From a virus (lineage: Duplodnaviria; Caudoviricetes): DNA of 64,000 nucleotides. The notes beneath the pieces are model-generated. The model ran no database searches and was not told where the DNA came from. It saw only the letters and a program-made list of their open reading frames with translations. The stretch is taken from positions 96,001 through 160,000 of the IMG/VR virus record IMGVR_UViG_3300046787_000508, one strand, 5' to 3'. This document shows positions 38,574 to 64,000 of the stretch, piece after piece. Every line of letters starts with the position of its first letter. Position 1 is the first letter of the stretch. The position numbers were made by a program, and so were the translations under genes.

Positions 38574-38765
38574 ATGATAATAGTAAAACTTAGTAACGAA
38601 AAAAACTTAGAAACTGCATTAAAGACCTATAAGAATAAGGTCAATAAAACTAAACAAATTCAGAAATTAAGAGAAAGACAGGAATTTGTTAAACCTTCTG
38701 TTATTAGAAGAAAAGAAATTTTAAAAGCAGTGTACGTTGAACAAACAAAAAATGGTCTTAATTAA
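38574..38765 (+). CDS. rpsU: Ribosomal protein bS21 (Bacteroidota-type)
   Basis: MIIV.....NLETALKTYKNK..KT..I.KLRERQEFVKPSV.RR.EI.KA.Y; opposite strand to the head genes; ATATTTAT at 38549-38556. Confidence 0.9.
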   Translation: MIIVKLSNEKNLETALKTYKNKVNKTKQIQKLRERQEFVKPSVIRRKEILKAVYVEQTKNGLN

Positions 38766-59813: not shown

Positions 59814-60353
59814 TTATTTCGTGTTTGTGAATATTTTATTAATTAATGACACACATGTCTTTTTAATTGCAGAAGACAATGCTTGTTGGTTTACTTTATC
59901 ACTACCTGAATCGGTAATTAATGTTGATGTAGAAATTTCGCTACTTGATTCCTCAGCAACGGCATCCTTTATCTTTTTCCCATCTTTGTCAGTTAAAAAA
60001 CCACGCATAACAACTAATGTCTCCTCAACATCAGAATGGAATACGGAAACATTTCTTTTGGTTCTATTAACATCAAAGTAAAGTAGTTCAGCCCTAAAAA
60101 TGTAATCAGCGTTTTCAGGACTCTCAACAATAACATAATCTTTTTCTTGAAGAATTTCTTGAAAGATATTCTTTACCCCAAATCCAAGGTTACGATTATT
60201 GGTGAGTTTACCAATTTTAATTTTATTCTCAACACCTGAAACGTAGACTGATTTCGTCTCATCTATTGGTCTTAACACGTCTACGAAGAACGCAAACGTG
60301 AAAAGATACAATAAGGGCAGTAGAGATACATTGAGTCTCTTTATTTTTGTCAT
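59814..60353 (-). CDS. Membrane-anchored CsgG/LptE-fold-like protein
   Basis: N-terminal hydrophobic segment; VYV..VEN....G.GV...+...L......+......ADY..R.E+; ATATTTAT 5 nt upstream of MTKIK. Confidence 0.5.
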   Translation of the reverse strand: MTKIKRLNVSLLPLLYLFTFAFFVDVLRPIDETKSVYVSGVENKIKIGKLTNNRNLGFGVKNIFQEILQEKDYVIVESPENADYIFRAELLYFDVNRTKRNVSVFHSDVEETLVVMRGFLTDKDGKKIKDAVAEESSSEISTSTLITDSGSDKVNQQALSSAIKKTCVSLINKIFTNTK

Positions 60354-60416
60354 ACTAATAAATATCATCTATTAGTCAACTGATTATAAAAAAAAATAAA
60401 AATATTTTAATCTTTT

Positions 60417-60448
60417 CTTGTTTATTACAATACTTATTGTTACCTTTG
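60417..60448 (+). promoter_or_regulatory. Bacteroidota primary-sigma promoter of the tRNA array
   Basis: CTTG-N20-TACCTTTG. Confidence 0.7.
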
Positions 60449-60477
60449 TACTATAAATCAAAGGAAAAAAAAATTCA

Positions 60478-60576
60478 ATGAGACAATTTACACATACAAT
60501 GTCGTTTACAATCTGTTCAAAATGGGCGGATGAGCGTTCTATGTCCTATAGTCTCGGAATTGATGAATTAAGTTAA
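60478..60576 (+). CDS. Putative 32-aa leader peptide (attenuator)
   Basis: MRQFTHTMSFTICSKWADERSMSYSLGIDELS*, located between the promoter and the terminator. Confidence 0.6.
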   Translation: MRQFTHTMSFTICSKWADERSMSYSLGIDELS

Positions 60577-60598
60577 AAGTAAATTAACTAATAATATT

Positions 60599-60636
60599 AA
60601 AACCCTGAGACTTATAATCTCAGGGTTTTTTGTTTT
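60599..60636 (+). terminator. Intrinsic terminator directly upstream of the first tRNA
   Basis: AAAACCCTGAGA-CTTATAA-TCTCAGGGTTTTTT. Confidence 0.85.
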
Positions 60637-60706
60637 GGGCCTGATGTCAACGGCAGACCACCTGATTTGCAATCAGAGTGTTTGGGTTCGATTCCCACAG
60701 TGTCCA
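60637..60706 (+). tRNA. trnA: tRNA-Ala(UGC), atypical (bulged acceptor stem)
   Basis: CTGA-TTTGCAA-TCAG arm, GGG-TTCGATT-CCC T arm, G3:U70 pair. Confidence 0.65.
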
Positions 60707-60711
60707 CAAAT

Positions 60712-60785
60712 TGGAATATAGCTCAGTTGGTTAGAGCGTCATCCTGATACGGTGAATGTCGATGGTTCGAGTCCATCTATTCCAA
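60712..60785 (+). tRNA. trnI: tRNA-Ile(GAU)
   Basis: Full cloverleaf; loop CTGATAC. Confidence 0.93.
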
Positions 60786-60792
60786 CAACAAT

Positions 60793-60865
60793 GGTGATGT
60801 AGCTCAGATGGTAGAGCGCTACCCTGAAGAGGTAGGCGTCGGCGGTTCGAGTCCGTCCATCACCA
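60793..60865 (+). tRNA. trnF: tRNA-Phe(GAA)
   Basis: Full cloverleaf; loop CTGAAGA. Confidence 0.95.
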
Positions 60866-60869
60866 CAAT

Positions 60870-60943
60870 GACCTCGTAGCTCAGTTGGTTAGAGCACCTC
60901 ACTTTTAATGAGGGAGTCAATGGTTCGAGTCCATTCGGGGTCA
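60870..60943 (+). tRNA. trnK: tRNA-Lys(UUU)
   Basis: Full cloverleaf; loop CTTTTAA. Confidence 0.95.
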
Positions 60944-60949
60944 CAATAT

Positions 60950-61021
60950 GCTGCGGTAGTGAAGAGGTTAACACGTATCACTTTCTATGATAAGGCCGGG
61001 GTTCGATTCCCCGTCGCAGTA
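60950..61021 (+). tRNA. trnE: tRNA-Glu(UUC)
   Basis: Cloverleaf; loop CTTTCTA (U at position 37). Confidence 0.85.
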
Positions 61022-61026
61022 CAAAA

Positions 61027-61097
61027 TACAAATTAGGCTAAGGTAGCCAAATGGTCTCCAAAACCATAGGAGAAAGTTCGATTCTTTCAATTTGTGC
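61027..61097 (+). tRNA. trnW: tRNA-Trp(CCA), AT-rich and atypical
   Basis: ATGGT-CTCCAAA-ACCAT arm, GAAAG-TTCGATT-CTTTC T arm, short D loop. Confidence 0.7.
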
Positions 61098-61152
61098 AAA
61101 ATATAAATTATGAAAAAGAAATTTGATATGCATTAGGTTAAATTCCTAATAT

Positions 61153-61374
61153 ATGAAACCGTTCAAAAACAAAGTAAGTCAAACGACAACTCACAACAAA
61201 GAGTATAAAATAGTAACAAACGATAAATTCGACCCATATTGGGATGAAGGATATAATTTTTATCCGAGATATCGTAGAGGGTATAAGAACCCAAATAAAT
61301 GTATAATGAGTTTTCAAATTAGAATGTATCGAACTTGGAAACATAATAGAAAAACACAATGGAGAATAATGTAG
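61153..61374 (+). CDS. Hypothetical basic protein (73 aa)
   Basis: ORF inside the tRNA array; RTWKHNRKTQW motif. Confidence 0.55.
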   Translation: MKPFKNKVSQTTTHNKEYKIVTNDKFDPYWDEGYNFYPRYRRGYKNPNKCIMSFQIRMYRTWKHNRKTQWRIM

Positions 61375-61781
61375 AGGGATTTAAGTTAAAGGCCGAAGCT
61401 CAACTTATCCAAATCAGAGAGGAAAGAAAAAAGAGGGTAAAGGAGTATTGGGAAAATCTCCCCAAGATTGTTACTCCAAACGATGTCCCTGAATTACCAA
61501 GAGTAGATATTCAGGAATGGAAAGATTTCTACGTCCCAAAATTAATTGAGGCGGGAGCAATTGGTAAGGACGATTTGATTGAAGGTCAAATTTACATTGG
61601 TGAACATAGAAGAGCGAATGTTGCTAAATGGAACGGAAATGAATTCATTTACAATAGAGAGAAATTTGGAAACGTTTATGAAGATAAATGTAACCACTTT
61701 GAAGATGATGATGGGTTCGCTTTATTTGTTCCAATTAGATTTGGTACTGAGGAAGAATATAAGCAAAATTGTTTACAATAA
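61359..61781 (+). CDS. Hypothetical protein (140 aa)
   Basis: Clean ORF inside the tRNA array. Confidence 0.65.
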   Translation: MENNVEGFKLKAEAQLIQIREERKKRVKEYWENLPKIVTPNDVPELPRVDIQEWKDFYVPKLIEAGAIGKDDLIEGQIYIGEHRRANVAKWNGNEFIYNREKFGNVYEDKCNHFEDDDGFALFVPIRFGTEEEYKQNCLQ

Positions 61782-61790
61782 ACAATAAAG

Positions 61791-61862
61791 GGTCTCTTGG
61801 TGTAACGGATAACACGGAACACTACGAATGTTTTGTTAAAGGTTCGAATCCTTTAGAGACCT
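61791..61862 (+). tRNA. trnR: tRNA-Arg(ACG)
   Basis: Cloverleaf; loop CTACGAA. Confidence 0.9.
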
Positions 61863-61869
61863 CAAATAA

Positions 61870-61941
61870 GTCAGGTTGACCGAGTTGGTAAGGTGAAGGT
61901 CTGCAAAACCTTTTACGTTGGTTCGAATCCAACACTTGACT
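61870..61941 (+). tRNA. trnC: tRNA-Cys(GCA)
   Basis: AAGGT-CTGCAAA-ACCTT arm. Confidence 0.9.
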
Positions 61942-61950
61942 CTAATATAT

Positions 61951-62024
61951 GGTGATTGTAGCTGAAATGGTAAAGCACCTGATTGTGGTTCAGGCGATTG
62001 TGGGTTCGATTCCCACCTTTCACA
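61951..62024 (+). tRNA. trnH: tRNA-His(GUG)
   Basis: CCTGA-TTGTGGT-TCAGG arm; encoded G-1; two U:U mismatches in the acceptor stem. Confidence 0.85.
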
Positions 62025-62031
62025 CAAAAAT

Positions 62032-62115
62032 TGCGGGATGTCAGAAGATGGTATCTGGGGAGTCTCATAAGCTCTTGCGTAAGCCTCGTGGGTTCGAGTC
62101 CCACTCCCGCAACCA
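62032..62115 (+). tRNA. tRNA with CAU anticodon and long variable arm
   Basis: Loop CTCATAA; variable region TGCGTAAGCCTC; encoded CCA. Confidence 0.8.
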
Positions 62116-62150
62116 TTTACAATGATATTTATATTCGGTAAATTATTACT

Positions 62151-62969
62151 ATGGAGTATAAATGTCAATATTGTAATGAAATGTTTGTTTTTGAAAAAAA
62201 ACAACAAGCGGGAGCTCACGTAACTAACTGTTCTATGAATCCCAAAAAAAAATTAATGACCGAGAAAAGGTTATTAAGTAAGGACCAAGTAAAAATAGAT
62301 AGAGTATTAAATTGTGAAAGATGTAATCAGGAATATACAATTAATATAACCAACCATCTATTCTCAATTGGTGATTATAAAAAACATTGTTCAAGAAAAT
62401 GTGCAAACAGTAGAACACAAAAAGAAGAAACAAAAAATAAAATATCGGAATCGGTTAAAATGTGGTTTGAAAAACCTGAAGTTAAAATAAAATTATTAAA
62501 AGATAAATCAAAATATAGAAGAAATAGAAAATGTCCATCTTGTAATGATGATTTTTTAACATTAAAATCGTCAAAACAAAAATATTGTTCATTGAAATGT
62601 GCAGGTTCCGCCGGAGGTAAAAACTCTAAACAGGGGAAAAGGAGTTTAAATGAAATTATGTTTTTTGAATTATGTAGTGAACATTTTGAAGGTGTAATGT
62701 CAAACGAAAACGCGTTTAATGGTTGGGACGCTGATGTTATTCTACCAAATGAAAAAATTGCAGTTTTATGGAATGGAATTTGGCACTATAAAAAAATAAT
62801 GAAAAAACATTCATTAACCCAAGTTCAAAATAGGGATATGATTAAAATAAAGGAAATAAAAAAATTAGGGTTTAAACCATATATAATAAAAGATATGGGT
62901 TCACATAATCCAGAGTTTGTGAATGAACAATTTATTATTTTTAAAAAATATTTAGAAAATATTTTGTAA
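62151..62969 (+). mobile_element. Free-standing homing-type endonuclease (zinc-binding repeats plus Vsr/DUF559-like PD-(D/E)xK domain)
   Basis: CxxC...HxxxC, CxxC...CSxxC (twice), then WDADVILP..KIAVLWNGIWHY; ATATTTAT at 62125-62132; inserted between tRNAs. Confidence 0.7.
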
Positions 62970-62993
62970 ATTAAAAAATAAATATTACATTTG
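62963..62993 (+). promoter_or_regulatory. Bacteroidota primary-sigma promoter for the downstream tRNAs
   Basis: TTTG-N19-TACATTTG. Confidence 0.78.
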
Positions 62994-63024
62994 TACAAGA
63001 ATTAAATGTTCATTGAAAATATAT

Positions 63025-63096
63025 CGCAGGGTAGAGCAGTGGTAGCTCGGGAGGCTCATAACCTCTAGGTCGTCAGTTCGAATCTGGCCCCTGCAA
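63025..63096 (+). tRNA. trnfM: Initiator-type tRNA-fMet(CAU)
   Basis: C1:A72 mismatch; GGAGG-CTCATAA-CCTCT arm. Confidence 0.88.
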
Positions 63097-63145
63097 CAAA
63101 ACATAAGATTAATTACCTTATGTATGGAAGGTTCGAAACTTCCGA

Positions 63146-63259
63146 TTGATTATGGTGTAAAGGTGCACGGCAGAACGGAGTAGGAATACGAAAAGCATTG
63201 AGCTTTCGTCGGTTCCGAAAGGGGAAACAGGATTATGGTTCGAATCCATTTTAGTCAAC
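63146..63259 (+). ncRNA. tRNA-like RNA (Gln-like body) with expanded anticodon region
   Basis: Acceptor TTGATTA/TAGTCAA, D arm GTGT-AAAGGT-GCAC, T arm ATGG-TTCGAAT-CCAT, with ~65 nt between the D and T arms. Confidence 0.55.
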
Positions 63260-63260
63260 T

Positions 63261-63388
63261 ATTGTAATTGACATAACGTCCTTAGCGGGAGAGCTTAGTA
63301 TATTACGGATAATCCTTCGGTAATTTACGATATGGTAACGTAGAAACAAGAGTAAGAGGATTTGAGTTCTACCTATGTTAGTTACAAT
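63261..63388 (+). ncRNA. Putative structured ncRNA closed by a 15-bp helix
   Basis: ATTGTAATTGACATA pairs with TATGTTAGTTACAAT (2 G-U); internal hairpins. Confidence 0.5.
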
Positions 63389-63392
63389 TTTT

Positions 63393-63465
63393 GGGATTGA
63401 GGTCAAACGGTTAAGATGTCGCCCTGTCACGGCGCACGGAGCGGGTTCAACTCCCGTCAGTCCCG
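63393..63465 (+). tRNA. trnD: tRNA-Asp(GUC)
   Basis: CGCC-CTGTCAC-GGCG arm; full cloverleaf. Confidence 0.93.
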
Positions 63466-63673
63466 CAAATGAGTAAGAGATACTCAATGATTTGGCATCG
63501 TTCGAAATAATGATGTAGTTGTTTCCTTCCACGATTTTATAGAGGGGGTCTCGGAATATGGTCGTAACAAAACTACCGAGTATGTTTGACGTTTTAAGCG
63601 GTAAGACGCGATGGGTTTTTCAATACGAAAAACTGTGAATATCTACCTCGAAATAATCTCATCGGGGACAATT

Positions 63674-63759
63674 GGAAGGATGGCAGAGTTGGTCGATTGT
63701 ACCTGACTTGAAATCAGGCGTACTGCAAGGTACCGTGGGTTCGAATCCTACTCCTTCCG
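63674..63759 (+). tRNA. trnS: tRNA-Ser(UGA)
   Basis: CCTGA-CTTGAAA-TCAGG arm; long variable arm; G73. Confidence 0.95.
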
Positions 63760-64000
63760 CAATTCGACGACATTTAGGGTGATTTAGTATCTAGATTACT
63801 CTTTGTAACGATTACGGAAGTACACATTTATTTGTGTTAAACGTTAAGTTCGACAGGTAGAAACTAAGTGGTTCGGAATTTGACTGAAACAAGGTGACTT
63901 GGTCTTTGAAGTATTCAAACGATTTATCGTTGTAGGTACTGAATAACAAGAAGATAAACTAAGAACATCATCGTATGAAGTTTACCTAGAGAAATTTATA

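Follow-up and report, generated by a model that had tools for sequence, protein, structure and literature searches.

A putative leader-peptide attenuator with a codon checklist upstream of the tRNA genes of a Bacteroidota phage

The attenuators of amino-acid operons (trpL, hisL, leuL, pheL, thrL and ilvL) place a short ORF close to the promoter and an intrinsic terminator behind it, the leader carries the regulatory codons, and the transcript can form the mutually exclusive pairings 1:2, 2:3 and 3:4. The enterobacterial thr and ilv leaders are multivalent and sense two or three amino acids, and the pheM leader of the pheST operon shows that attenuation can act on an aminoacyl-tRNA synthetase and hence on the apparatus of translation. 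The tRNA genes of phages are commonly seen as constitutive codon-usage helpers or as spares against tRNA-targeting defences.

Here we describe a locus directly upstream of a phage tRNA array that shares all of these features with the amino-acid operon attenuators. We report its anatomy and conservation, the covariation of its pairings, and the match between leader codons and downstream tRNAs together with the co-evolution of that match. From comparison of the sequences we judge, with a probability of about three in four, that the element is a ribosome-mediated (leader-peptide) transcription attenuator that senses the decoding of the very tRNA set it gates.

The locus and its tRNA genes

The window analysed is a stretch of 64,000 nt, bases 96001–160000 of a 202,894-bp IMG/VR virus record that is estimated to be ~60% complete; positions are given in window coordinates unless called genome positions. 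A gene for ribosomal protein bS21 (38583–38735; Pfam PF01165, 41.7 bits) places the phage among the large Bacteroidota phages described in PMC9723584. The bS21 phages of that study carry 5–25 tRNAs per genome, with no account of tRNA control (PMC9723584). One relative reaches 334 kb.

The tRNA array extends from 60637 to genome position 164232 and comprises 25 tRNAs in ARAGORN, with further ones at a relaxed threshold. Three minus-strand genes end at 60368, so that the element sits in a divergent intergenic region. Downstream of it, the tRNA cluster that it would gate (cluster 1; 60637–64000 in the window, plus strand; Rfam and ARAGORN) holds Ala-like, Ile, Phe, Lys, Glu, Trp, Arg(ACG), Cys, His, Met, fMet-like, Asp and Ser(UGA) tRNAs, and runs past the window end as far as a second Glu tRNA. 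The first gene of the cluster is an atypical tRNA-Ala(UGC) on the plus strand (60637–60706), scored by Rfam at 30.0 bits against a cut-off of 29 and recovered by ARAGORN at the relaxed threshold only, being missed at default. It has a weak D arm and acceptor-stem mismatches and keeps G3:U70; some relatives have a canonical tRNA-Ala at the same first position. Two CAU tRNAs are of note: the one at 62032–62115 is 84 nt long with a long extra arm, unusual for Met, and the one at 63025–63097 has a C1-A72 mismatch, as in bacterial initiators. An internal promoter had been predicted at 62963, and a promoter-like site is indeed matched by pattern at 62964–62993 (plus strand), upstream of the fMet-like tRNA. 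Behind it, at 63008–63019, stands the motif GTTCATTGAAAA.

Anatomy and conservation of the leader

A host-type promoter, a 32-codon ORF using 17 of the 20 amino acids and a strong terminator ahead of the first tRNA at 60637 had been named in the original prediction, and all three are present. The promoter is of the Bacteroidota type (TTG-N20-TACCTTTG, i.e. a TTG, a 20-nt spacer and a TAnnTTTG −7 box) and was located by pattern match at 60418–60448 on the plus strand, as are all parts of the leader that follow. Among the homologs introduced below, 64/78 have the strict motif TTG-N17-21-TAnnTTTG upstream of the ATG, its usual end lying 27–30 nt before the ATG. The 5′ untranslated leader (60449–60477) is A-rich, as in every row of the homolog alignment A1, and lacks a Shine-Dalgarno sequence; such start sites are typical of Bacteroidota. 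The ORF itself (60478–60576) consists of 32 codons and a TAA stop.

Further elements can be assigned within and around the ORF. The start-codon region (60474–60484, UCAAUGAGAC) is segment 1, which in the minimum free energy (MFE) fold forms the 5′ arm of a closed leader hairpin. Codons 6–21 (60493–60540), defined by their match to cluster-1 tRNAs, make up the sensor core and encode His Thr Met Ser Phe Thr Ile Cys Ser Lys Trp Ala Asp Glu Arg Ser. They enclose an apical hairpin (60511–60531; a stem of 9 bp and an AAA loop with the Trp codon on its 3′ side) in which 95–98% of cells are paired across homologs and all changes are one-sided and pair-preserving; it is possibly an RNA polymerase pause hairpin. 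Segment 2 (GUCUCGG, 60551–60557) is identified by fold and covariation as the antiterminator strand, able to pair with either segment 1 or the terminator 5′ arm. The small hairpin that separates it from the terminator (60571–60589) carries the stop codon in its 5′ arm, shows changes on both sides in all six pairs across homologs, and would shorten the antiterminator loop. The intrinsic terminator, composed of segments 3 and 4 and the U-tract, occupies 60599–60631, has a stem of 12 pairs (60599–60629; five G-C) and ends 5 nt upstream of the first tRNA. The leader RNA as a whole folds with an MFE of −43.9 kcal/mol, and none of 200 shuffled sequences folds as well (z = −4.25).

The leader was found again in loci collected in a manner blind to it. 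A search by the neighbouring 184-aa gene returned 26 loci, and the leader is present in 16/16 of those whose array opens with Ile, Phe and Lys (with an Ala tRNA before them). Further searches of viral and metagenome contigs with the odd Ala tRNA and with core patterns brought the collection to 80 distinct leaders (alignment A1) on contigs of lake and marine phages. In 80/80 of them the ORF is open, with 29–34 codons and an ATG that never varies; frames +1 and +2 are both interrupted by stops in 80/80, and the indels observed are multiples of three. At conserved codons the changes are mostly synonymous (TCG/TCA/TCC, TGT/TGC, GCG/GCA). Variability at the three codon positions (0.34/0.54/0.56) is not that of a classic protein under purifying selection; some residue identities are free, and an RNA structure overlaps the frame. 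Taken together, the comparative data make it probable that the leader ORF is translated.

Database searches returned no known family. The leader peptide has no Pfam family at E up to 10, and neither the leader DNA nor the surrounding 9-kb stretch matched public phage records. Rfam models of all families, run over 60300–64000 at E up to 1, gave tRNA and chance matches only and none in 60300–60636; His_leader, Trp_leader, Thr_leader, Leu_leader and T-box were considered as identities of the element and set aside, there being no covariance-model match in 60300–60636. A 22-nt degenerate core pattern run against bacterial and archaeal genomes (596 Gb) gave four matches in unrelated taxa, with ~4 expected by chance by our own estimate, and hence no sign of the leader in cellular genomes.

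Two side observations concern the same position. Four relatives found by the 184-aa gene (L007, L014, L015 and L020) have in place of leader 1 a conserved, G+C-richer stretch of ~300 nt, which stands behind a TAnnTTTG promoter and looks like a structured RNA; Rfam at the gathering threshold assigned no family to it in L020. The 8-mer ATACTTAT has only five copies in the genome, two of which are at the promoters of leader 1 and of the second leader described below: at 60430–60437, in the spacer of the first promoter, and at genome 161707–161714, just downstream of the second leader's −7 box. Both are kept in relatives, and the 8-mer may be a shared regulatory site of the two leaders.

Pairings of the terminator switch

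Attenuation in the trp/his manner had been proposed on the basis of an 11-bp antiterminator with one bulge. Its core stands: GUCUCGG at 60551–60557 is complementary to CUGAGAC at 60605–60611 in the terminator 5′ arm, giving 7 bp that include one G-U pair in the window. The remainder, an extension by UAUA paired to the terminator loop, is seen in this genome only and is not conserved. The alternative pairing that had been predicted between UGAGAC over the start codon and GUCUCG (60551–60556) is part of the MFE fold, where it closes a long hairpin and sequesters both the start codon and segment 2. More fully, the partner of segment 1 in this fold is 60551–60563, and the same closing helix is found in homologs.

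Covariation was assessed for each of the three pairings. Every homolog has a complement of 6–9 bp to its terminator 5′ arm, located 6–21 nt ahead of the stop codon, and the variants of the two strands occur together: GUCUC[AG]G with CCCUGAGAC, GUCUCGA with CCUCGGGAC, GUCCCGAGG with CCUCGGGAG, and GUUCCGAG with CCUCGGAAU. With segment 2 and arm in register the mean is 7.73 pairs, against 7.20 ± 0.085 when shuffled, and 0/5000 shuffles reach the observed value. In alignment A1 85.3% of segment 2:arm cells are paired, compared with 6–57% for a slid partner, and 43 cells are changed on both sides, a number reached by 0/500 shuffles. A tree computed with these columns left out shows that the arm type has switched four times independently, and segment 2 is concordant with these switches in 3.4 cases on average and discordant in none; an independent-pairs test of segment 2 against the arm gives p of 0.125–0.5, as four pairs cannot reach significance. 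The terminator is paired in 98.6% of cells and has three pairs with compensatory changes. Covariation is weaker in helix 1 (1:2), which is 63% paired on the MAFFT alignment and has some compensated pairs, e.g. GC to AU at alignment columns 44:124. Four loci (L053, L058, L095 and L157) have segment 2 deleted and have lost the terminator U-tract too, and in this lineage the two appear to decay together.

The geometry of the terminator bears on how the tRNAs can be transcribed. The distance from the U-tract to the first tRNA is 2–7 nt in 57/74 homologs, which leaves no room there for a promoter between them; with the terminator so close to the first tRNA, the first tRNAs can be transcribed only by a polymerase that passes through it. 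At equilibrium the terminator is more stable than the antiterminator in the window, so that the antiterminator must win kinetically, as in classical attenuators. Promoter, leader and the 1:2, 2:3 and 3:4 pairings are thus each supported by comparative data, and the architecture put forward in the original prediction holds.

Codon content of the two leaders and location of the tRNA genes

It had also been noticed that the early codons of the leader include the amino acids of the visible tRNAs. The amino-acid diversity of the peptide (17/20) was discarded as evidence for a sensor, as it is not in itself informative, and with a near-complete phage tRNA set the codon match is informative only given a split of the array into two clusters. 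Such a split is made by a second leader of the same design at genome 161721–161886 (1721–1886 bases past the window end), which has a 35-codon ORF and is followed by 12 tRNAs. Its UGUUCGG is complementary to its own terminator arm, a closed leader hairpin forms, and the leader is kept in relatives. The array is thereby divided into two separately led clusters, one with the 12 specificities Ala, Ile-GAU, Phe, Lys, Glu, Trp, Arg-ACG, Cys, His, Met, Asp and Ser-UGA (cluster 1), the other with Leu-UAA, Arg-UCU, Pro, Leu-UAG, Asn, Tyr, a CAU tRNA, Val, Thr, Gly, Gln and Ser-GCU (cluster 2). Between the end of cluster 1 and leader 2, at genome 161576–161648, stands a tRNA of the amber suppressor type, whose anticodon is CUA.

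Each leader lists the codons of its own cluster. Codons 6–20 of leader 1 hold all 12 cluster-1 specificities, the only foreign codons there being two Thr, whereas 0/54,861 15-codon windows in the long ORFs of the phage cover all 12. Codons 3–28 of leader 2 (26 codons) are all of the cluster-2 type and all 12 specificities are present; among 53,398 background windows of 26 codons, 59 consist of cluster-2 codons only, 15 include all 12 specificities, and no window combines the two properties. For reference, codons in the 133 long ORFs of the phage are 45% cluster-1 type and 55% cluster-2 type. The division follows the codon box, not the amino acid, and mirrors the location of the matching tRNAs: leader 1 uses CGU for Arg, UCN for Ser and AUC for Ile, and leader 2 uses AGA, AGU and AUA. 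As leader 2 uses AUA twice, the CAU tRNA of cluster 2 is probably of the Ile2 type. The match of leader 1 is imperfect in that it has three Thr ACA codons, yet tRNA-Thr lies in cluster 2, and its codons 2–5 are mostly of the cluster-2 type; the segment-1 helix (AUGAGAC) probably fixes at least codons 2–3 of these. No overall rare-codon bias was found in the leaders (mean RSCU 1.4 and 1.35).

Cluster 2 shows a further feature directly after the leader-2 terminator, where a promoter-like box is found at genome 161884–161914: the U-tract of the terminator ends in its TTG, after which comes TAnnTTTG. This box is conserved in five relatives (L006, L009, L019, L022 and L023), and cluster 2 seems to have a basal promoter besides the attenuated one. 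Given this site and the one at 62964, some of the tRNAs can be transcribed outside leader control, to which the leaders would then add an inducible component. A motif similar to GTTCATTGAAAA, GTTC[AT]TTGACAT, occurs after the leader-2 promoter-like box and also, in relatives, in the spacers between tRNAs; the motif may serve as an initial transcribed sequence or as a site of processing.

The match was then compared across relatives. Over 20 genomes with complete arrays, codons 6–21 of leader 1 comprise 270 that are read by the own cluster only and 21 read by the other cluster only, and leader 2 comprises 435 and 34, respectively. Where the partition of the tRNAs differs, the leaders differ with it. 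One clade has tRNA-Thr in cluster 1 and the Asp and Ser(UGA) tRNAs in cluster 2; five Thr codons are found in its leader 1, whose sensor has lost Asp and UCN-Ser, and its leader 2 has gained Asp and two UCN-Ser codons. Another clade has both the Val and Thr tRNAs in cluster 1, and its leader 2 is without Thr. A Val codon is found in the leader 1 core of 6/7 genomes with tRNA-Val in cluster 1, against 1/35 without. When leaders are scored on the partitions of other genomes, wrong-cluster codons rise from 5.1 to 6.5 on average, and from 4 to 8–9 for the clade in which Asp and Ser-UGA have moved.

The clearest test was a search with the scaffold only (start region, segment 2 and terminator), which left the core unconstrained. 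It recovered a clade whose core reads TTSPMNQQNWN and whose downstream tRNAs are Pro, Asn, Trp, Gln, Thr, Met and Ser. In members of this clade that have Tyr, Arg-ACG and Asp tRNAs and no His tRNA, His6 is replaced by Tyr6 and Glu-Gln by Asp-Arg(CGU). In the two leaders with the most fully visible clusters the own cluster can read 16/16 codons; the figure is 8–14/16 for three leaders whose contigs are cut, and clusters of the window's type read 5–9/16 in leaders of this clade. Comparison of these sequences indicates that the leader core is rewritten to match where tRNAs have moved or been replaced.

Proposed mechanism and comparison with known attenuators

On the proposed mechanism, transcription would start at the promoter (60418–60448) and a ribosome would load on the leader ORF while the polymerase moves on. 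With fast decoding of the sensor core the ribosome would have reached the stop codon or left, and segment 2 would be covered or re-paired with the start-codon region; a ribosome at the stop codon, 17 nt past segment 2 and inside the small hairpin, would cover or crowd it. If no ribosome loads, the closed leader hairpin would form. In both situations the terminator is expected to form and transcription to stop 5 nt before the first tRNA. Slow decoding at any sensor codon would have the opposite effect, with the stalled ribosome holding the 5′ arm of the leader hairpin and leaving segment 2 free to capture the terminator 5′ arm, whereupon the polymerase would read into the tRNA genes. We infer this direction of response, from stalling to read-through, from a layout that is the same as in trp and his attenuators.

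As there is about one sensor codon per downstream tRNA specificity, the element would act as a checklist. A shortage of any one listed charged tRNA, whether host or phage, would raise synthesis of the whole cluster, and the outcome would be a demand-driven negative feedback on the supply of the listed tRNAs. The original prediction had the leader sense general tRNA depletion; many different codons do appear to serve as sensors, but the list is that of the gated cluster and not of any tRNA. Shortages could arise from host shut-off, from a mismatch in codon usage or from tRNA-cleaving defence, and a host anticodon-nuclease defence is a plausible natural trigger.

Three other explanations were weighed against the proposed tRNA-sensing attenuator. 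The switch could be real and yet answer general translation status, nascent-peptide arrest or some other signal instead of the individual listed tRNAs. Architecture alone is silent on the cause of ribosome slowing, the amino-acid sequence of the peptide core is kept within clades, and its ICSKW stretch resembles the tryptophan-sensing TnaC peptide. A general sensor, however, needs no match between leader codons and tRNAs, whereas the match seen here is extreme, reciprocal between the two leaders and tracks tRNA relocations, and the TTSPMNQQNWN clade has a wholly rewritten core on an unchanged scaffold. As for arrest, no Pfam family, Tna leader included, is found at E up to 10, and the peptides have no conserved C-terminal Pro and end variably at 29 to 34 residues, whereas TnaC-type peptides keep a Trp, an Asp and a C-terminal Pro at fixed spacing; a TnaC-type arrest peptide is for these reasons unsupported, and we regard a switch answering to a general signal as improbable.

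We give a slightly smaller chance still to a regulatory element made of RNA only (riboswitch-like, T-box-like or protein-bound) in which the ORF is incidental. The long hairpin is conserved, with an invariant UGG at the apical loop, and the leader nucleotides are more conserved than the neighbouring protein gene, both of which an RNA element would explain. It would not explain a frame that is open in 80/80 homologs beside other frames closed in 80/80, indels in multiples of three, synonymous change at conserved codons or a codon content that fits the downstream tRNAs, and no Rfam family, T-box included, is found in 60300–60636 at E up to 1. Least probable, and in our view very unlikely, is that the ORF stands alone as a gene for a small protein and the terminator belongs to that gene, with the tRNAs transcribed from other promoters and the codon match a by-product. 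Promoter, ORF and terminator do form a complete small transcription unit, and promoter-like boxes exist inside the array and after the leader-2 terminator; but the 57/74 homologs without space for a promoter before the first tRNA speak against it, as does the lack of a Pfam family match, and it leaves unexplained both the covariation between ORF segment and terminator arm and the rewriting of the peptide on every change of the tRNA set.

The tRNA-sensing attenuator thus remains the preferred reading, and its features can be set beside those of the described systems. A short ORF lies close behind a promoter, a terminator precedes the tRNAs, the 2:3 pairing excludes 3:4, and 1:2 overlaps the ORF; cognate regulatory codons are found as well, in a new form with one codon per downstream tRNA specificity. 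With somewhat less assurance we consider it probable that phage tRNA operons are under demand-sensing feedback by checklist leaders: each would list the codons of its cluster about once and down to the codon box, a shortage of any single charged tRNA would switch on the whole cluster, evolution would rewrite the list when tRNA genes move, and the two leaders here would divide a near-complete tRNA set between them. The leader codons would also amount to a built-in functional annotation of ambiguous tRNAs, as where the AUA codons of leader 2 argue for an Ile2-type CAU tRNA, and the leader would be a compact natural sensor of tRNA supply usable for engineering.

Full-text searches of the literature returned no description of a leader peptide or attenuator before, or controlling, tRNA genes. 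The T-box riboswitch is alike in that the state of the tRNA pool decides between terminator and antiterminator; it works by direct binding of a single uncharged tRNA, with no translation involved, and is found mostly among Firmicutes, whereas the ORF and codons of the phage leader point to the ribosome. The pheM leader is alike in applying attenuation to the translation machinery and not to amino-acid synthesis, but it senses Phe only and gates a protein-coding operon, while the phage leader would gate tRNA genes. The amino-acid operon attenuators gate biosynthetic enzymes and rely on a run of one codon; the phage leader has tRNA genes downstream, carries about one codon for each of 12 specificities and, unlike them, tells apart codon boxes (Arg CGU/AGA, Ser UCN/AGY, Ile AUC/AUA). 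The enterobacterial leaders differ, too, in their setting, the present one belonging to a phage of Bacteroidota. The class of mechanism is classical, and what is new are the gated genes, the 12-fold checklist sensor, the reciprocal pair of leaders and the rewriting of leaders. If the reading is true, this would be the first attenuation control of tRNA genes and the most multivalent attenuator known, with 12 specificities against one to three in classical leaders.
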